From: Escherichia coli 042
Lineage (GTDB): Bacteria; Pseudomonadota; Gammaproteobacteria; Enterobacterales; Enterobacteriaceae
Assembly: GCF_000027125.1 (NCBI RefSeq)
Contig: NC_017626.1
Direction: 5' to 3' (one strand)
DNA length: 64,000 bases
Below are positions 24,796-38,220 of the stretch, one piece after another (position 1 is the stretch's first letter; each line of letters starts with the position of its first letter). Under the pieces are notes generated by a model that was not told where the DNA came from, did not search any database, and saw nothing but the letters and a program-made list of their open reading frames with translations. A program made the translations under genes and the position numbers.

Positions 24796-24999
24796 TTACG
24801 GCGCTGTTTTTAATCCTGCCGGGATTTCGTTATTGTCCATGTGAATAACTTTATCGACCGGATAACAGTTGCCGGGAATTTTCTGTTCCGCTGCGGCAGC
24901 CATGCATTCTTTCATTGAGTTGTACATGCCGGTGATTGCATCAAGCGACTCACCAGTATTGAGATGTACAGTCAGAATGAGTACGAATAATGTGTTCAT
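24796..24999 (-). CDS. hypothetical small protein with hydrophobic N-terminus (67 aa)
   Basis: ATG preceded by GGAGAG; ATGA-type stop/start overlap with upstream ORF. Confidence 0.55.
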   Translation of the reverse strand: MNTLFVLILTVHLNTGESLDAITGMYNSMKECMAAAAEQKIPGNCYPVDKVIHMDNNEIPAGLKTAP

Positions 25000-25184
25000 C
25001 GCCACTCTCCGAAAATACCGAGTTTAAGAAGGGCAATTCTGGAGAGTATGGAATTGTCATTCAGCAGGTAGGGTTCATATTTTCTCATATTGATTGCATC
25101 CTCGGTGAAATCCCTGTTACTGAGCAGAACACCAATATTAAAGCACCCGTCAGACGTATTAACGTTTGGTAGTGACGTTTCCAT
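24996..25184 (-). CDS. hypothetical protein (62 aa)
   Basis: ORF with GAGGA Shine-Dalgarno, translationally coupled to the next gene. Confidence 0.5.
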   Translation of the reverse strand: METSLPNVNTSDGCFNIGVLLSNRDFTEDAINMRKYEPYLLNDNSILSRIALLKLGIFGEWR

Positions 25185-25194
25185 TATCGCGTCC

Positions 25195-25752
25195 TCAACA
25201 ATGAATTTTTAGCAATTGCTCCACAGTCATATTTTTAATTGCGCTCCGGTTTACAAGAGTCCATCCTTGTTTCTCCAGATAAAACCGGAAGGTATCCAGG
25301 GTGCAGACCATTGCGCCGTCAGGAACGGTTTCAGTGAATTTGATATTGCCGTGTTCGTCGAGACGGATAACCAGGGTGCGTCCGTCCCCGTGAATCATTT
25401 TGTCGGGAGACGGGGCGTTATTCTGGCGCAGTTCTGCTTCCATGCGGTCGAACTCAGCAATGTATGCCTCTTTAAATGCAGCGGCTTTTTTGCCAGTGAA
25501 GCCCATCACCAGGAAAACGAAGCCGTTTTTGGTGATTTGGTACATTGGGAGTTTGCGCCCGGTTGAGTCGGTGTATTCGCTTGACACAAAATTGTGCTCA
25601 GTGAATTTTGCTGAACAGTCCAGATTGCGAATTTTATCCAACACTCGTTCGTGGCGTTTGCCAAAGAACTCGGCGATCGCAACAGACGTAGTGACAGCGC
25701 GACCATTTTCGATGGTTACGTCAGGGTGAGAAAGGGTAAGGATAGTAGCCAT
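25195..25752 (-). CDS. rha: Rha-family phage regulatory protein (185 aa; internal ATG of listed 284-aa ORF)
   Basis: N-terminus TSVAIAEFFGKRHERVLDKIRNL...YQITKNGFVFLVMGFTGKKAAAFKEAYIAEFDRME typical of Rha domain; GGAGG 8 nt upstream of ATG at 25752. Confidence 0.8.
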   Translation of the reverse strand: MATILTLSHPDVTIENGRAVTTSVAIAEFFGKRHERVLDKIRNLDCSAKFTEHNFVSSEYTDSTGRKLPMYQITKNGFVFLVMGFTGKKAAAFKEAYIAEFDRMEAELRQNNAPSPDKMIHGDGRTLVIRLDEHGNIKFTETVPDGAMVCTLDTFRFYLEKQGWTLVNRSAIKNMTVEQLLKIHC

Positions 25753-25921
25753 GATGGCAGCCTCCGCGATGAATTTGATTAACTCACCACCGAGGTTTTC
25801 CACGACCATAAGGGTGGTGAGACGTACAGGGGTGGAAATACCGGTCATCACGGAACCCGGCCAGCCTTGCGGCTGCCCTGCACGCCCCACCATAATGCGA
25901 ATGTGGCTGTGCTTAACGCAT

Positions 25922-25946
25922 AAAAAAACCGCCTGAGCGCGGTTAT
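25922..25946 (-). terminator. intrinsic terminator on minus strand upstream of rha (tL-like)
   Basis: hairpin aaccgc gctcag gcggtt followed by T7 on minus strand. Confidence 0.5.
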
Positions 25947-26621
25947 GCGCCGTGAATGATTTCGGGTTTCCACGCCCGGCACCCGTTTTATGAGGTGCAG
26001 GTGCACTATAATTCCACCCGTTCTGGTTTTCAATAGCTACATTCAACATTTTCTCTACCTTTCATCACCGAAGTGAACTTTGTTGATGCGGTGCCTGGTG
26101 CCTCCAGGTGACGTTAACCAGTTAACAATTAACGTCGGATACAGAGCATTCCCGTTACGCCCGTAAAAGACCGCTTGTTTTAACTGTTCCGCGTGCGCTG
26201 AGCCGCATTCACCGCATCACAAAATTCACTTTAAAAAGGGCGGCAGAGCAGTCACGGAGTAGAACTGATACCGCCAAAAGTCACCAGAAAATTGATAACA
26301 GAGGGCGTTGCAGCGGAGTTGTCACTTAAGCGTATGGTCAACCTGACAACCCGGTGTCCTCAGCGGGGAAGGAATAACCCCGCCATACTTACCGCCGCGC
26401 CATTTCGCGGATTGCCACAACCGGAAGCGCACGGTCGAACTAAATTTAACGACACCGTACAGAGAGACCAATTTCGCCGTGCGCTTTCGCGTTATGCCCT
26501 GACTTTTCAGGGACATATCCTTTCAGTAAACTGTCAGTGCCGGATGCTCACCCGTGTCCGGCGCACGCACTCCACCTGACCCGTGGAGAACTCCTTAATT
26601 ACCAACCCTCAGGAGGGTGAA

Positions 26622-27283: not shown

Positions 27284-27502
27284 TTAACGTGGGTATGTAA
27301 CCATTCTGGCAATGCTTAATGCCGCTGCTTTTTCCAGCCTGGTGATATCCTGCTCCAGAGCGGACAGATTTTCAGCCTGCTTAGTCCTGGCTTCATTGGC
27401 CCATTTCAGATCCTGCACTGCATTAATTTTCTGGCGCATCCACTCATAAAGTTCATCATCGGTATAGTCTGGCGCGATGATGACGGGTTCTCGTTTCTGC
27501 AT
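27284..27502 (-). CDS. hypothetical early protein (72 aa), at the position of kil in Rac-type prophages
   Basis: ORF with GAGGA Shine-Dalgarno. Confidence 0.5.
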   Translation of the reverse strand: MQKREPVIIAPDYTDDELYEWMRQKINAVQDLKWANEARTKQAENLSALEQDITRLEKAAALSIARMVTYPR

Positions 27503-27531: not shown

Positions 27532-27660
27532 TCAGCCGTTAGATTTTCCCGAACTGGAAAGCGCCTGTTTAAATTCACTGAAGCTGAGAGCTTCTTCGCC
27601 TTCGGCAAGACCATCGAAGTATTCTTCGTAAGCCTTTTCCATGATTGTGTCGAAATCCAT
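27532..27660 (-). CDS. small acidic protein (42 aa), YdaG-like by size and position
   Basis: not in the >=60-aa track; found by manual translation. Confidence 0.45.
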   Translation of the reverse strand: MDFDTIMEKAYEEYFDGLAEGEEALSFSEFKQALSSSGKSNG

Positions 27661-27661
27661 A

Positions 27662-27817
27662 TCACTCACCTGAGTTTCTTTCCAGCCAGCGACGGGCACC
27701 ATTTTCGGTTTTAAACGTTTTGCTTTTGGTATACGTCATCGCGGTGAATGTGCCGTCCTGGTTGGGAAACACGCCGTACACCAGAGATTCGTTGTTGCCA
27801 AGCTCGATAGTATCCAT
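27662..27817 (-). CDS. small protein (51 aa), YdaF-like by size and position
   Basis: manual translation MDTIELGNNESLVYGVFPNQDG...; first gene of the leftward operon. Confidence 0.45.
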   Translation of the reverse strand: MDTIELGNNESLVYGVFPNQDGTFTAMTYTKSKTFKTENGARRWLERNSGE

Positions 27818-28013
27818 GCTGACCTCATTTCCCCTTAACGCCGGGTGGCGGAACTAAAACCTACAGCGCCGTGCTGTTCTTGATAGAAATATTAGTAACG
27901 CGGATATTTTAAGTCAACAGTATGGCGTATGATATTTTTGATTTGGTAACTATGTAAATGTTTTTTCAAGGGAAAAATATTAGTTATACAGCTGATTTGC
28001 AGAAGTTATGGCA

Positions 28014-28045
28014 CAAAAAAACCGACTAAGACGTCGGTTTTTTTG
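28014..28045. terminator. intrinsic terminator 3' of the repressor gene
   Basis: A7, hairpin ccgac taagac gtcgg, T7. Confidence 0.55.
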
Positions 28046-28070
28046 TTGTGGATGGGGTAGTGAGCGGTGG

Positions 28071-28532
28071 CTACTGGTTACGTTTCTTTAGTGCCAGCAT
28101 GTTCTCGAAGGCTTCCTCGTAGAGCTTGTTTAGTCCACGTAGCTGGTTAAGGAGTTTGGCTTTTTCTGACGCAGGTAGAATCTCGAAGAGGTTAAGTAAC
28201 TCTGCCTGTTCTTCATTGACCAGCCTCCATCCTTTGCCTGAAAAGTTATCATCATAAGTATCTGATGATCTTACATAATTCATTAAGTCTTTAAGGTCTT
28301 CTCGAATGTCCTCTGGTTTTACCTTTAACAGAGCCGCAAATTTTAGCGCAGCGTCGGTATTTACCGGTATCTTGCCGTTCAGATACTGGCTAACGGTGCC
28401 TTGAGATTCGAATCCCAACAACTCAGCCGCCAGCTCTTGAGTCAGCTTCAGCTCTTTTTTTCTTGCATTCCATGCGGCTTTTAAATTCTTGCTCGCTTCT
28501 GGAGTTGCAATCACTTCGCGTGTTTTTTTCAT
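28071..28532 (-). CDS. racR: prophage repressor, XRE-type HTH (153 aa), RacR-like
   Basis: HTH LTQELAAELLGFESQGTVSQYLNGK; divergent from a cro-like gene; Rac-like gene order. Confidence 0.75.
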   Translation of the reverse strand: MKKTREVIATPEASKNLKAAWNARKKELKLTQELAAELLGFESQGTVSQYLNGKIPVNTDAALKFAALLKVKPEDIREDLKDLMNYVRSSDTYDDNFSGKGWRLVNEEQAELLNLFEILPASEKAKLLNQLRGLNKLYEEAFENMLALKKRNQ

Positions 28533-28639
28533 ACATAGAGTTTATTTGTTTTACCAATATTATCAAAGATAGTCTGGCTATTGATCTTTAAAATTAGCGG
28601 GGCTAATATTTGCTCGAGGCATAACGTAGAAGGTTGGCT
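28533..28639. promoter_or_regulatory. divergent repressor/cro promoter-operator region
   Basis: AT-rich 107-bp intergenic region with imperfect inverted repeat atcaaagat-N12-atctttaaa between divergent HTH genes. Confidence 0.45.
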
Positions 28640-28915
28640 ATGAACTTAAGAGACTATTTAAAAGAGAAACATATCACCCAGCTACAGTTTGGGAAGCTAA
28701 CGGGTTTATCTCAGGTGCATGTAAGTCGAGTGCTGGGGGGCTATGAAAGATTCAGCCCTGAAAAAGCATTACGTGTTGCTGAAGTAACGAATTTCGAGGT
28801 TACACCTCATGAACTCCGGCCTGATATTTACCCGAATCCAACCGACGGCTTACCTGTTGGATTCAAGGCTAACACACCAAATGCATCGGAGTTGATTCAT
28901 GAAAATCAGGCATGA
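28640..28915 (+). CDS. ydaS: Cro-like HTH protein, YdaS-like (91 aa)
   Basis: HTH LQFGKLTGLSQVHVSRVL; GAAGG Shine-Dalgarno; first gene of the rightward operon. Confidence 0.7.
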   Translation: MNLRDYLKEKHITQLQFGKLTGLSQVHVSRVLGGYERFSPEKALRVAEVTNFEVTPHELRPDIYPNPTDGLPVGFKANTPNASELIHENQA

Positions 28916-29324
28916 GCACATCCGCATGGCGATGAATGCCTGGGCGCATCCGGACGGTGAAAAAGTTCCGGCAGCTGAAATAACCCGGGCTTATTTTGAG
29001 CTTGGTATGACGTTCCCGGAATTATATGACGACAGCCATCCGGAAGCCCTGGCTCGCAATACCCAGAAAATTTTCCGCTGGGTGGAGAAAGACACTCCTG
29101 ATGCGGTTAAAAAAATTCAGGCGTTGTTACCAGCGATCGAAAAAGCAATGCCGCCTCTGCTGGTGGCCCGAATGCGCAGCCACAGTTCAGCTTATTTTCG
29201 GGAGCTGGTGGAGACGCGGGAACGACTGGTGAGAGACGCTGATGATTTTGTCGCAGTGGCGATCGCTGGTTTCAACCAGATGAATCGTGGTGGCCCTGCA
29301 GGAAATATTGTGGCTGTGCATTGA
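28899..29324 (+). CDS. ydaT: YdaT-like protein (141 aa; Rac prophage YdaT family)
   Basis: MKIRHEHIRMAMNAWAHPDGEKVPAAEIT... recalled as matching K-12 YdaT; overlaps ydaS-like stop. Confidence 0.75.
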   Translation: MKIRHEHIRMAMNAWAHPDGEKVPAAEITRAYFELGMTFPELYDDSHPEALARNTQKIFRWVEKDTPDAVKKIQALLPAIEKAMPPLLVARMRSHSSAYFRELVETRERLVRDADDFVAVAIAGFNQMNRGGPAGNIVAVH

Positions 29325-29395: not shown

Positions 29396-30436
29396 ATGGC
29401 TAACGCCTGGCTCAGATTATGGCATGACATGCCAAATGACCCTAAGTGGCGAACAATTGCCAGGGTGTCAGGGCAGCCAATTGCAACAGTGATGGCAGTG
29501 TATATCCACCTTCTGGTGAGCGCGTCACGAAATGTCACGACATGTCACGGCGTGTCACTACGTGGTCACATTGATGTCACGACGGAAGATTTAGCAAGTG
29601 CGCTTGATGTGACGGAAGAAGTAATTGATTCAATTTTACAGGCAATGCAGGGGCGGGTACTTGATGGAGATTTAATCACCGGATGGGAAAAACGCCAGGT
29701 ACTGAAAGAGGACAATGGCAACGTTTCACAAACCGCGAAATCCCCGGCAGAGCGCAAGAGAGCGCAGCGCGAGAGGGAAAAATTACGAAAACAGAATGAG
29801 GGGTGTCACGACGAGTCACGCATATGTCACGACATGTCACGACGAGTCACGACAGATAAAGATACAGATAAAGAATTAAACCCCACACATAACGCGCACG
29901 TGCGCGAGAGTGCTCCGACCAGTGAGTCGAGTGGTACGCCGTTGCAGGCAGCAGAACCTGCATCCCTGGATGGACTGAGCGAACCCATCGGGAAATTTCC
30001 GATGGTCGATGACTGGCATCCGTCGCCGGATTTTCGACGACGGGCTGCGTTGTGGGGGATGGCTTTGCCGGAGCCGGAATTTACACCTGCTGAACTTGCC
30101 GCTTTCCGGGACTACTGGGCAGCGGAGGGGAAAGTTTTCACGCAGGTTCAGTGGGAGCAGAAATTCGCCCGTCACGTAAATCACGTCAGGGCGCAGGTTA
30201 AGCCAGTCAGCAAGGGGGTAAACCATGCAGCAGCACCAGGTGGCACCGCATCACGGGCAGTTCAGGAAATTCGGGCAGCACGTGAGCAGTGGGAACGTGA
30301 AAACGGATTTATCAGCGACGGAAACGGTCTGGAAGCTGTGGGAACTCATGGGGGAGGTTTATTCGAACCGCTGGACCCAGAAGAACGGGGCCGCACCTTC
30401 GAAGCTCTGGATTGCACAGATTGGCGCGATGACTGA
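29396..30436 (+). CDS. replication initiator, lambda O-like role (YdaU/DUF1376-like N-terminus), 346 aa; contains ori iterons
   Basis: AAGAGG Shine-Dalgarno; two internal iteron arrays; followed by a lambda P-like gene. Confidence 0.8.
   Translation: MANAWLRLWHDMPNDPKWRTIARVSGQPIATVMAVYIHLLVSASRNVTTCHGVSLRGHIDVTTEDLASALDVTEEVIDSILQAMQGRVLDGDLITGWEKRQVLKEDNGNVSQTAKSPAERKRAQREREKLRKQNEGCHDESRICHDMSRRVTTDKDTDKELNPTHNAHVRESAPTSESSGTPLQAAEPASLDGLSEPIGKFPMVDDWHPSPDFRRRAALWGMALPEPEFTPAELAAFRDYWAAEGKVFTQVQWEQKFARHVNHVRAQVKPVSKGVNHAAAPGGTASRAVQEIRAAREQWERENGFISDGNGLEAVGTHGGGLFEPLDPEERGRTFEALDCTDWRDD
29521..29585. repeat. ori iteron array 1: six GTCAC-core repeats at ~10-bp spacing inside the initiator gene
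   Basis: gtcacgaaatgtcacgacatgtcacggcgtgtcactacgtggtcacattgatgtcacgac. Confidence 0.75.
29801..29880. repeat. ori iteron array 2: five GTCACG repeats at 10-11-bp spacing followed by an AT-rich tandem cagataaaga element
   Basis: gtcacgacgagtcacgcatatgtcacgacatgtcacgacgagtcacgac then agataaagatacagataaagaattaaa. Confidence 0.75.
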
Positions 30437-30890
30437 GCAGCAAATCCGACAGGTCTGCCGCCAGTGCATGGACCGCTGCCGGGCGGGTGAAACATGGCCT
30501 CCGGACCTGGCTGAGTTTGTGGCGCTGATTTCAGAAAGCGGGGCCAATCCATTTGGCCTGACGGTGGATGCTGTGATGGAGGAGTACCGCCGCTGGCGTG
30601 ATGAATCCTGGCGATATGACGGAAGCGACAAATATCCGTGGCCTCAGCCTGTGCTGTACCACATCTGCCTCGAAATGCGTACCAGAGGGATTGAGCGCCA
30701 GATGACGCAGGGTGAGTTAAAACGACTTGCGGAACGGCAACTGACGAAATGGGCAAAGCATGTTGGTAACGGGATGAGTGTTCCGCCAGTGCGACGACAA
30801 CTGGAAGGGGCGAAACACCCGCAAGGGCCAACGCCAATTGAACGGCTGAAACAGGAATACGAACGCCGGAAGGCAGCTGGTTTTATTTGA
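30225..30890 (+). CDS. lambda P-like replication protein (helicase loader family), 221 aa
   Basis: C-terminal half resembles lambda P (YDGSDKYPWPQP..., ...ELKRLAERQLTKWAKHV...); ATG with AGGGGG Shine-Dalgarno; overlaps the initiator 3' end out of frame. Confidence 0.65.
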   Translation: MQQHQVAPHHGQFRKFGQHVSSGNVKTDLSATETVWKLWELMGEVYSNRWTQKNGAAPSKLWIAQIGAMTEQQIRQVCRQCMDRCRAGETWPPDLAEFVALISESGANPFGLTVDAVMEEYRRWRDESWRYDGSDKYPWPQPVLYHICLEMRTRGIERQMTQGELKRLAERQLTKWAKHVGNGMSVPPVRRQLEGAKHPQGPTPIERLKQEYERRKAAGFI

Positions 30891-35290: not shown

Positions 35291-35501
35291 AAACGGTTTG
35301 CGGGAAAAGGAGAGTTAAGTAGAATTGCAGCGGGTGCTTGAGGCTATCTGTCTCAGGCATGAACACCAAAAGGCAGATAGAGAAAAGCCCCAGTTAACAT
35401 TACGCGTCCGGCAAGACGCTTAACATTAATCTGAGGCCATATCTATGCTCTACACACGTAGGTTAGCCTCTTACGTGCCGAAAGGCAAGGAGAAGCAGGC
35501 T

Positions 35502-35657
35502 ATGAAGCAGCAAAAGGCGATGCTAATCGCCCTGATCGTCATCTGTTTAACCGTCATTGTGACGGCACTGGTAACGAGGAAAGACCTCTGCGAGGTACGA
35601 ATCCGAACCGGCCAGACGGAGGTCGCTGTCTTCACAGCTTACGAACCTGAGGAGTAA
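35502..35657 (+). CDS. hok: Hok/Gef-family type I toxin (51 aa), HokD/RelF-like
   Basis: MKQQKAMLIALIVICLTVIVTALVTRKDLCEVRIRTGQTEVAVFTAYEPEE matches the Hok family signature. Confidence 0.8.
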   Translation: MKQQKAMLIALIVICLTVIVTALVTRKDLCEVRIRTGQTEVAVFTAYEPEE

Positions 35658-35822: not shown

Positions 35823-36473
35823 ATGAATGAAAATCAGTTAGCTCCTTGTTGGGAATTTCAACCTTATCTTGCTGAAAACTATGTTCGCCACTTGTTGGCG
35901 GAGATCGCTAACGTACTTGAGCAGCTGTACTATCATAAGCACGCATTAGACAGCAACTGGTCTGAAGGTGTAAGGGCTTATGATTGGGTCAGAAATCATC
36001 TTATTCAAAATGAAGATGCAATTCCTGGCCTTGAGATGATTTCCAAGGGGTTGGACTATGTAGTTGCTTTAAATAAAGTTCCGCTACAATTTACCAAAGA
36101 TTGCATTAATAACCCCAAAAAGAAACATCGTCTGCGTCGAAATAAAGTAGAGTATGAGCAGCTCTCATTGTTTGGTGATGTTGAGGCTGAGCAAGATATT
36201 ACATGGCGAGTCATAGCTGAGCCTTTTTTATCCGAAGAGGGCGATGGTGAATTAGAGTCCACACTGCCTCGTTGGGAGGTAGCTCTTGTTGGATTTAATA
36301 CTTATGGTGCTCAGATTAGTATAGTTTCTCATCAATCTACAGCATCGATGCCGCTTATGCCTCTTGATTATAACACACTCCCTGACGAAGCGGAGATTAA
36401 TAAGGTGCCTCTTCGTCGGCGTACGAAGGATAAAGATTTGGATGTGAGCAGTGATGGAACATCAGGTGAATAA
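35823..36473 (+). CDS. hypothetical protein (216 aa), first gene of a low-GC two-gene cassette
   Basis: ORF after TTGACA-containing promoter-like sequence; no motif recognised by eye. Confidence 0.7.
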   Translation: MNENQLAPCWEFQPYLAENYVRHLLAEIANVLEQLYYHKHALDSNWSEGVRAYDWVRNHLIQNEDAIPGLEMISKGLDYVVALNKVPLQFTKDCINNPKKKHRLRRNKVEYEQLSLFGDVEAEQDITWRVIAEPFLSEEGDGELESTLPRWEVALVGFNTYGAQISIVSHQSTASMPLMPLDYNTLPDEAEINKVPLRRRTKDKDLDVSSDGTSGE

Positions 36474-37557
36474 CTTCACTGAGTATCGGGGTGATAAGCT
36501 CAAACTAGCGAGAATGGCTGTTGGGCTTTCTTGTGAAGAGTTAGCCGAAAAAATTGGCAAGACAAAGCAATTCGTTAGCAAACTGGAGAAGGGGTGCAGG
36601 CCATCGGAGCAATGTCTTGAGTTAATATCTTCAGCGCTTATGATTAAGTCCAGTTTTCTTTTTACTGAACGAAAATACGCTCTGGAAAGTGATGTCTGCC
36701 ATTTTCGGAGTAAGAAGTCCAGGACTCAAACGCTGACTAATAGTGTATTGGCCAGGGCTGAGATTCTTAATATTATAATTTCTGCTGTTGAAGGTGAAAT
36801 CGAATTTCCTGACGTTAACATACCGGAGCACCCAGGGGCTGAATTACTTACTCCGAATGATATTGAGCGAGTGGCAGAAGATTGTCGCCGTGCCTGGAAT
36901 TTAGGTCTTGGCCCTATATCATCAATGGTTAAATTGGCGGAGAGTTTAGGGGTAATCGTTGCGCATGTTACGGGAGTCGATGATCGTGTTGATGCTTTTA
37001 CTGTTCACAATAACAGGCCTGTTATCATCAGGAACAATGTTAAAAAAAGCATATGTAGATTTCGCTCTGATTTAGGTCATGAATTAGGGCATTTAGTAAT
37101 GCATGAGGGCATAACGACAGGTGATAAACTTACGGAATCACAAGCCGATCACTTTTCGAGCGCCTTATTAGTTCCCAGGTTATCTTTCATTAAAGAATTT
37201 CCACGAATACGAGGTAAGCAATTCGACTGGAATGCTCTGGTTGAATTTAAACTTAGATGGAAAATCAGCCTTAAAATGTGTATTTATCGAGCCAGCGCAT
37301 TAGGCTTATTGACCCAGGAACAGGCAAGAACTGGCTATATGCATCTTAATTCCAGAGGGTATACGAGAGTTGAACCTGGTGATGAACTTTTGCGCCCTGA
37401 AGAACCCGGCATGCTGGCCGAGGCGATTGAAATGCTGGATGATGCAACCTGGCTAAGAATTCTTATGAAAACTGGCTTGAGCCAAGATTTAATTCGTGAG
37501 TTGTTCTCCATCAACAGACCTATTACAAATCCAAGAAATATTTTCCAGATTGTTTGA
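36454..37557 (+). CDS. fused XRE-family HTH / ImmA-IrrE (COG2856-type) zinc metallopeptidase (367 aa)
   Basis: N-terminal HTH (LSCEELAEKIGKTKQFVSKLEKG) and HExxH motif HELGHLVMHE; overlaps upstream gene by about 20 nt. Confidence 0.8.
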   Translation: MEHQVNNFTEYRGDKLKLARMAVGLSCEELAEKIGKTKQFVSKLEKGCRPSEQCLELISSALMIKSSFLFTERKYALESDVCHFRSKKSRTQTLTNSVLARAEILNIIISAVEGEIEFPDVNIPEHPGAELLTPNDIERVAEDCRRAWNLGLGPISSMVKLAESLGVIVAHVTGVDDRVDAFTVHNNRPVIIRNNVKKSICRFRSDLGHELGHLVMHEGITTGDKLTESQADHFSSALLVPRLSFIKEFPRIRGKQFDWNALVEFKLRWKISLKMCIYRASALGLLTQEQARTGYMHLNSRGYTRVEPGDELLRPEEPGMLAEAIEMLDDATWLRILMKTGLSQDLIRELFSINRPITNPRNIFQIV

Positions 37558-37947: not shown

Positions 37948-38220
37948 ATGGCGCATAATTTCAAATTTCGCAATTCTGATTCTGCCTTTGCCAGCAGGCA
38001 CGGGTGGCGTTCTCACGCATTCAAATATGACTGGTATCAGCACGATCCCTGTACTGAAGAACAGGCCGAATGGCTGATTCATAACTACCGCAGACGTGGA
38101 TATGAGTTTAGGAAAGCCCTCACCCTCGATTATCGTCACTGGATAATCTACGTCAGACTCCCTTATTCCGAACGCCCACCGCGTCCGTCCCGCACATTCC
38201 AGCAACGCATCTGGAGGTAA
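37948..38220 (+). CDS. hypothetical protein (90 aa)
   Basis: ATG 6 nt after GGAG. Confidence 0.5.
   Translation: MAHNFKFRNSDSAFASRHGWRSHAFKYDWYQHDPCTEEQAEWLIHNYRRRGYEFRKALTLDYRHWIIYVRLPYSERPPRPSRTFQQRIWR

Follow-up and report, generated by a model that had tools for sequence, protein, structure and literature searches.

We analyzed the immunity region of a structurally complete lambdoid prophage that is integrated next to ompW in Escherichia coli 042 and lies within a stretch of 64,000 nucleotides of contig NC_017626.1, hereafter the window. The region very probably works as a lambda-like lysis-lysogeny switch, which is composed of a non-cleavable DicA-like repressor, a Cro protein of the YdaS family and a CII-like YdaT protein. 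An earlier sequence-only reading of this DNA had proposed a Rac-type module instead, in which a RacR-like repressor guards a toxic YdaS/YdaT pair. The three open reading frames (ORFs) that it described are all present in the window: the repressor gene (28071–28532, minus strand), encoding a CI analogue of 153 aa; the cro analogue (28640–28915, plus strand), encoding a YdaS-family helix-turn-helix (HTH) protein of 91 aa; and ydaT (28899–29324, plus strand), encoding a YdaT-family protein of 141 aa, the putative equivalent of CII and a predicted tetrameric transcription activator. The divergent repressor and cro genes are separated by a 107-bp intergenic region, while cro and ydaT overlap by 17 nt. 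The start of cro is taken as the ATG at 28640, which is used by the NCBI Prokaryotic Genome Annotation Pipeline (PGAP), the TTG six bases upstream (28634) being less likely. The basic description in the sequence-only reading, an XRE-HTH repressor without an S24 domain, divergent from a Cro-like gene that overlaps a YdaT-like gene, agrees with the coordinates, the Pfam content and the overlap.

The repressor contains HTH_3 as its sole Pfam domain (residues 23–75). Peptidase_S24 (PF00717) is absent from the Pfam search of the repressor, which places the protein outside the self-cleaving LexA/CI S24 class. Since the autocleavage domain is lacking, RecA-stimulated self-cleavage is not expected, and the earlier suggestion of a non-canonical induction is borne out to this extent. 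The repressor shows no blastp match to K-12 RacR, and a profile built from ten full-length repressor relatives (from E. coli, Enterobacter, Hafnia, Serratia and metagenomes) was matched by RacR with an hhalign probability of 1%, against 94.9% for DicA (E=4.7e-8, full length) and 89.6% for PaaR2 of prophage CP-933P (E=1.9e-6); the labels 'RacR-like' and 'Rac-type' are thus abandoned. The kinship with PaaR2 appeared only in the profile comparison, PaaR2 not being matched by the repressor in blastp. Among the K-12 Rac and Qin proteins, the repressor has a single pairwise match, confined to the final 42 residues of DicA (38%), and the NCBIfam DicA model (NF007257) aligns with residues 18–152 of the 153 at 35.1 bits (E=9.9e-9). 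These comparisons support homology of the repressor to DicA, yet by the curated threshold it falls outside the DicA family.

Specifically, the repressor, DicA and PaaR2 have in common a C-terminal motif, ELLxLFxxLPxxE, which the hhalign alignments place at VNEEQAELLNLFEILPASEKAKLLNQLR in the repressor, LSPKELELLELFNALPESEQDTQLAEMR in DicA and LTSNQLELLQIFSAFPEDEQRQIISELK in PaaR2. With an N-terminal HTH, a short helical C-terminal domain that carries this motif and no S24 domain, the protein has the architecture of the DicA/PaaR2-type non-cleavable lambdoid repressors. Its N-terminal domain finds the N-terminal domain of lambda CI in the PDB (E about 3e-4), and the AlphaFold2 model is confident for the N-terminal domain and of low confidence for the C-terminal helices (residues 107–118 and 121–152). 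The repressor is, as judged from these alignments, a CI-type DNA-binding domain joined to a DicA/PaaR2-type C-terminal domain.

The Cro-like protein matches Pfam YdaS_toxin (PF15943; 30.6 bits, E=3e-7) together with HTH_3, and PHROG 35 at 90.8 bits. Its identity is 32% with Rac YdaS and 28% with CP-933P YdaS (PDB 8c7k, deposited as 'Cro'); comparison with the K-12 Qin proteins found no resemblance to DicC. The match to YdaS, though weak, is consistent, and the protein, encoded divergently from the repressor and upstream of ydaT, belongs to the YdaS family as a Cro analogue. The 141-aa protein matches Pfam YdaT_toxin (PF06254) and PHROG 163, 'CII-like transcriptional activator' (155.6 bits), and its resemblance to characterised YdaT proteins along their whole length makes it a member of the YdaT family. 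Identity is 83% with CP-933P YdaT (PDB 8bt1; E=4e-79 in the PDB search), about 97% with PDB 3c4r, which comes from E. coli O6 (E=3e-91), and 32% with Rac YdaT, again across the full length. The placement of the Cro-like protein and its neighbour in the YdaS and YdaT families, as the sequence-only reading had it, therefore stands on the Pfam matches and on 32% identity of each to its Rac counterpart; of the three K-12 Rac proteins to which that reading had linked the module, only RacR is without a match.

Additionally, we found a cognate inverted repeat, the YdaT box TTGATTCATGAAAATCAG (TTGATTN6AATCAg; 28892–28909, plus strand), at the cro/ydaT junction, where it extends across the start codon of ydaT. 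It is the single match to TTGATTN6AATCAA with at most one mismatch in the window, and a box lies at the same position, on the ydaT ATG, in the aligned CP-933P-type loci and in Rac. The POU-like YdaT tetramer binds TTGATTN6AATCAA at the ydaS/ydaT junction (PMC9986795), and both CP-933P and Rac YdaT have a footprint on the YdaT box and act through it (PMC9986795, PMC11879457). In Rac, YdaT turns on racR by way of the box ATGATTCATGAAAATCAA on its own start codon, using a reverse promoter that lies within ydaS (PMC11879457), and CP-933P YdaT activates a promoter resembling that for repressor establishment (PRE), with no toxicity detected (PMC8630535). By analogy with these proteins, the window YdaT would activate a leftward promoter that drives repressor synthesis.

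The intergenic region between the divergent genes (28533–28639), which we refer to as the right operator (OR) region, contains two divergent promoters, one like the promoter for repressor maintenance (PRM) and one like the rightward promoter (PR). The PRM-like promoter (minus strand) consists of a -35 element TTGATA (28566–28561), a 16-nt spacer and a -10 element TAAACT (28544–28539), followed after 6 nt by the repressor ATG at 28532, and no Shine-Dalgarno sequence was found upstream of this ATG. The geometry of -10 hexamer, 6 nt and ATG is kept in all relatives and is the same in paaR2, which is leaderless by experiment (PMC8630535); judged from this geometry, the repressor is probably made from a leaderless transcript of the PRM-like promoter. 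The PR-like promoter (plus strand) consists of TTGATC (28581–28586), a 17-nt spacer and TAATAT (28604–28609), and its -10 element is covered by a 21-bp near-palindrome, AAAATTAGCGGGGCTAATATT (28590–28610). The OR region also holds the motif AATATTGGTAA (28551–28561). An alignment of the intergenic region with four relatives from other taxa shows that both -10 elements and the TTGATC and TAATAT motifs are conserved.

On the other side of the repressor gene, a terminator hairpin (28013–28046), with a 14-bp perfect stem, a 6-nt loop and flanking A and T runs, begins 25 nt past the repressor stop codon, and GC hairpins followed by T runs also trail the repressor gene in three of the related loci (L008, L012 and L013). 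With this hairpin, the repressor gene is monocistronic, unlike paaR2-paaA2-parE2. Beyond it lies a candidate left operator and leftward promoter (OL/PL; 27888–27983, minus strand), in which the promoter scan finds a -35 element TTGACT (27917–27912), a 17-nt spacer and a -10 element TAATAT (27894–27889), together with a second candidate leftward promoter (27958–27929, minus strand). The window contains three exact copies of CTAATATT, all of which flank the repressor gene: one sits on the PR -10 within the near-palindrome, and two are located between the repressor terminator and ydfA (27888–27895 and 27976–27983, 88 bp apart), of which one sits on the -10 of the TTGACT-N17-TAATAT leftward promoter. 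In L012, a relative from Enterobacter, these two motifs recur, again 88 bp apart, together with a TTGACA-N17-TAATAT promoter. As the palindromes are partial and leave the operator boundaries unfixed, the element reported here is the recurring CTAATATT core.

The same core is found with repressors of the cleavable type. The repressor N-terminal domain is 49–64% identical to the N-terminal domains of S24-bearing repressors, with the recognition-helix stretch SQGTVSQYLNGK identical in both, while the C-terminal halves of these PF00717-bearing relatives do not align with the repressor. In the S24-type relatives, whose contigs have 62–67% G+C, CTAATATT is placed on the PR -10 and CTAATAAT on the PRM -10. 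This pairing of recognition helix and motif supports CTAATAT as the half-site that would be read by the repressor HTH. It is conceivable, and we propose it with caution, that the repressor family is a natural chimera, which would share its recognition helix and the apparent CTAATAT half-site with SOS-cleavable S24 repressors of distant high-G+C bacteria and in which the cleavage domain would have been replaced by a DicA/PaaR2-type oligomerisation domain. If so, the operator specificity, or output, would have been retained while the induction signal, or input, was exchanged, which would give an SOS-blind prophage; the inducing signal might then come from accessory cassettes such as an IsrK/C4-controlled Rha antirepressor. 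Two metagenome contigs illustrate the S24-type arrangement (L015, 1670–1752; L016, 2420–2500): the AT-rich CTAATATT and CTAATAAT occupy the two divergent -10 elements although the contigs are rich in G+C, the S24-type repressors share the recognition helix with the window repressor, and their start codons are in the leaderless geometry.

The window was further compared by blastn with the Qin, Rac and CP-933P-type (Sp12) loci and with a fourth locus (L006). Homology ends at about 27855–27862 and restarts at 28888–28893; no DNA similarity to Qin, Rac or Sp12 was found across 27856–28887, while both flanks are similar. The right-hand break coincides with the left edge of the YdaT box, which is thus also the right-hand mosaic junction. 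The repressor, cro and both operator regions move together between sharp breaks at both ends, as in a lambdoid immunity cassette, and to judge from these boundaries, the segment of about 1 kb that they enclose, with OL/PL, terminator, repressor, OR and cro, behaves as a swappable cassette of the classical kind, with ydaT lying outside and inherited separately. Phage Rac-SA53 holds the cassette at 97.3% identity between Rac-type flanks (intR, recET, kilR) and with a different ydaT behind it, and the GenBank annotation there reads dicA/dicC. Repressor and Cro change together from genus to genus (92/77, 71/54 and 58/47% identity), whereas the adjacent YdaT is only 31–41% identical. A YdaT identical to that of CP-933P is encoded beside PaaR2/YdaS in one genome, and in another (L006) its neighbours are an S24 CI and a P22-type Cro. 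Since the same ydaT is found beside quite different repressor/cro pairs, ydaT is not a partner of the window repressor.

Of 5426 complete E. coli genomes, 179 contain the cassette, and 140 records match it with an identity of at least 99%; for the longer segment 27200–29500 (2.3 kb, with ydfABC, repressor, cro and ydaT), the number of records at this level is 134, and many complete E. coli genomes are 100% identical over the 2.3 kb around the switch. In Enterobacter ludwigii GCA_034107145.1 (the locus L012; 3190–3651), the repressor is 92% and the Cro 77% identical, with an adjacent YdaT of only 31%, and the left arm is Rac-like, with SieB, KilR, YdaE and Exonuc_VIII. This context indicates that the same immunity cassette moves between backbones of Rac-like and Qin-like type across genera.

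These direct observations on ORFs, family relationships, mosaic boundaries, conserved motifs and promoter geometry fit the following scheme. The CI analogue would bind CTAATATT-containing operators at OR (28533–28639) and at OL (about 27888–27983). Bound at OR, it would shut off PR and with it cro, ydaT, the O/P replication genes and onward; bound at OL, it would shut off PL and thereby ydfABC, dicF, dicB, exo, xis and int. The Cro analogue would compete for the same operators, while the CII analogue YdaT would bind the box on its own start codon and activate a leftward promoter inside cro, establishing the synthesis of the repressor. Induction, if any, would need a route other than autocleavage, such as an antirepressor, proteolysis or stochastic switching. 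Several points weigh against this scheme. The DicA score of 35 bits is far under the family cutoff of 101, and the AlphaFold predicted local distance difference test score is below 60 across the repressor C-terminal domain. The operators for the repressor/Cro pair are motif predictions, and since 1.5 exact copies of CTAATATT are expected in the window against the three present, their significance lies in the placement, not in the count. The PR-like promoter has 8/12 consensus positions and was missed by the promoter scan, and a search inside cro for a leftward promoter of the PRE type gave nothing convincing, the best candidate having 8/12 consensus matches.

Among the characterised systems, we compared the region with CP-933P/Sp12 of E. 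coli O157:H7 (PMC8630535, PMC9986795), where, likewise, a non-cleavable repressor of the HTH type is encoded divergently from a Cro of the YdaS family, with YdaT following. Jurenas et al. described PaaR2 as CI-like, leaderless, without a peptidase motif and unresponsive to mitomycin C, and YdaS as Cro-like, binding the same operators at OR and the PL region (PMC8630535). The two loci also agree in the closely similar YdaT with the same box on its start codon, in the repressor start 6 nt past the -10 hexamer, in the position of OL/PL beyond the repressor unit and in the C-terminal motif of the repressor. The immunity type is different: the repressors have no blastp match, the Cro proteins are only 28% identical, and the DNA of the cassette is dissimilar throughout. 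The operator half-site is CTAATATT in the window versus GTTTAGTAA in CP-933P, the N-terminal domain of the window repressor is a clear lambda-CI-type HTH, and its gene, which has its own terminator, is not followed by the paaA2-parE2 toxin-antitoxin genes.

Lambda cI-cro-cII serves as the functional template for the switch, with its divergent PRM/PR promoters, distant OL/PL, leaderless repressor mRNA and CII site that overlaps the start of its own gene, and its CI N-terminal domain is the one matched by the window repressor in the PDB. It differs in its S24 C-terminal domain, which the window repressor is without, and in CII, to which YdaT, a POU-like tetramer, is unrelated in sequence; equivalents of rexAB, N and cIII were not identified next to the switch. 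Qin dicA-dicC/dicBF of K-12 shares the full-length DicA-like architecture of the repressor and a left operon, ydfA-ydfB-ydfC-dicF-dicB, that is 90–96% identical in DNA. In contrast, the window repressor scores below the DicA cutoff, with pairwise similarity limited to those last 42 residues, the Cro is of the YdaS family and not similar to DicC, and the YdaT-like gene of Qin (ydfX) is truncated whereas the window ydaT is full length. Rac racR-ydaS-ydaT of K-12 has the same order of repressor, Cro-like protein and YdaT, a YdaT related over its full length, the box on the ydaT start codon and a YdaF that resembles the window YdfA. It is set apart by the unrelated RacR, by the genes for YdaG, SieB and KilR, which are absent from the window locus, and by the toxicity of YdaS/YdaT, reported only for the Rac proteins.

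The first genes of the leftward early (PL) operon, all on the minus strand, are ydfA/DUF1391 (27662–27817), ydfB (27532–27660) and ydfC (27284–27502), which are 98, 95 and 94% identical to K-12 Qin YdfA, YdfB and YdfC, respectively, and the PGAP names in identical genomes agree; DNA identity to Qin is 96% up to about 27855. The sequence-only reading had seen YdaF/YdaG-like ORFs here. The YdaF part holds insofar as YdfA is 84% identical to Rac YdaF, but the three proteins are of the Qin type, and no YdaG homologue was found among the small ORFs left of the repressor in the comparison with K-12 Rac and Qin proteins. Beyond ydfABC follow the small RNA DicF (26238–26289, minus strand; Rfam, 71.5 bits) and dicB, a divergent DicB allele (24996–25184, minus strand, in the leftward operon), by which the left arm follows the layout of the Qin dicBF operon and not the Rac arrangement that had been assumed. 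With DicF and DicB in the leftward operon, derepression of PL should block cell division, and loss of the repressor would be harmful whatever cro and ydaT do. Prophage repressors such as DicA are generally scored essential for holding down DicB/DicF (PMC11481867; bioRxiv 10.1101/708461).

An 864-bp cassette immediately upstream of dicB (25210–26073, minus strand) comprises an IsrK-like RNA (25922–25998), a C4 antisense RNA of the P1/P7 immI type (25810–25897), both from Rfam, and a Rha-family gene (25195–25725), all on the minus strand. PGAP extends the Rha ORF to 284 aa by an N-terminal extension that spans both RNAs, a start that is probably over-long, and annotates a dicB 5' remnant on the far side of the cassette. 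Could the Rha-family protein be a dedicated antirepressor that inactivates the non-cleavable repressor, so that induction is controlled by RNA and not by SOS? The ORF matches PHROG antirepressor/Rha families (phrog_995, 518, 373 and 63), IsrK and C4 lie directly upstream of it, and a repressor without an S24 domain would suit such a role. We nevertheless consider this unlikely. The cassette has no counterpart at the same position in VR50, Qin or Sp12, and since VR50 has a 100% identical immunity region, the switch exists without Rha; an insertion absent from genomes with an identical switch is not integral to it. Moreover, the PL operon that contains the cassette should be silenced by this very repressor, and an interaction between Rha and the repressor is a supposition. 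A search of the window for LexA boxes (CTGTN8ACAG) gave four sites versus 0.6 expected, none of them upstream of an antirepressor-like gene: two perfect palindromes lie in the rightward early region, inside rmrA (37001–37016) and inside a hypothetical coding sequence (38049–38064), and the other two in host or tail genes.

The toxin-guard proposal, that a RacR-like repressor is kept mainly to silence toxic YdaS/YdaT as a toxin-repressor or atypical toxin-antitoxin unit, draws on the Rac literature. Two 2017 papers termed Rac YdaS and YdaT toxins repressed by RacR and found RacR depletion lethal through ydaS/ydaT (PMC5700373, PMC5700377), and expression of Rac YdaT leads to filamentation and death (PMC11879457). 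Furthermore, the Pfam names YdaS_toxin and YdaT_toxin match the two proteins of the window, and the cassette occurs in the Rac-family phage Rac-SA53. We judge this proposal to be very improbable for the window, and the repressor-guarded toxic pair, as the sequence-only reading worded it, is not upheld. The repressor is unrelated to RacR. The window YdaT is far closer to CP-933P YdaT than to Rac YdaT (83% versus 32%), and the CP-933P protein is a CII-like activator with no toxicity detected, for which its authors rejected a toxin-antitoxin role (PMC8630535). Even for Rac, Jobling argued that YdaS and YdaT are the Cro and CII of that prophage (PMC5917428), and when Rac YdaT is forcibly expressed, its toxicity arises via rcsA as a side effect of its regulatory action (PMC11879457). 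The 'toxin' names in Pfam stem from a prediction that was later contested (PMC5917428), and ydaT recombines independently of repressor/cro, which is unexpected for a co-adapted toxin-guard pair. The tolerance of a repressor deletion in the lysogen, by which the earlier proposal was to be judged, does not discriminate here, since with dicB, dicF and lysis genes in the prophage the loss of any repressor is expected to be harmful (PMC5917428, PMC11481867).

That the region is a decaying remnant without a working switch, as could be thought from the first description of related modules in the cryptic prophages Qin, Rac and CP-933P, is hardly credible in view of the three intact ORFs, the identity of at least 99% of the 2.3-kb segment and of the cassette over the records counted above, the promoter and operator motifs conserved across genera, and the full replication, lysis, head and tail gene sets of the prophage.

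The surroundings of the switch are in keeping with the view of the sequence-only reading that the prophage is otherwise lambda-like. Downstream of ydaT, on the plus strand, lie an O-like replication gene with a DnaT-like domain (29396–30436; PHROG 1408/15931, NCBIfam DnaT domain and PGAP name) and a P-like helicase loader gene (30429–30890; PHROG 109 and PGAP name), and the repressor, cro, ydaT and O/P genes are arranged in the lambda order. The prophage further contains integrase, excisionase, exonuclease, Q, holin, lysozyme and terminase genes and a full lambda-type head/tail set. Other RNA features of the prophage lie at 35332–35507 (+), 42147–42393 (+), and 42472–42662 and 42940–43149 (+): a sok antitoxin RNA adjoining hokD; three tRNA genes, which are tRNA-Ile, tRNA-Arg and tRNA-Arg according to the annotation of a near-identical genome; and two copies of the small RNA STnc100 upstream of a SASA-family esterase gene. 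The gene pair 35823–36473 (+) and 36451–37557 (+) matches PADLOC RmrT (86 bits) and RmrA (349 bits), which we take to be the Rosmer anti-phage system. In RmrA, an HTH is joined to a metalloprotease region that is ImmA/IrrE-like (capP-like), and the PGAP labels of the pair are only 'hypothetical protein' and 'helix-turn-helix domain-containing protein'.

Together, these results describe a new immunity type within a well-known class of switch. Public records already annotate the module, and in identical genomes PGAP gives the three proteins the names 'helix-turn-helix domain-containing protein', 'YdaS family helix-turn-helix protein' and 'toxin YdaT family protein'. The labels 'toxin YdaT' and 'YdaS toxin', and with them the idea of a guard repressor, should not be transferred to this widespread E. 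coli module. With its sharp cassette edges and the YdaT box exactly at the right junction, the region is a clean example of lambdoid immunity-region recombination. Finally, a non-cleavable DicA-like repressor bears on how prophages of this kind are induced, many of which carry dicB/dicF and defence genes that affect the physiology of the host.

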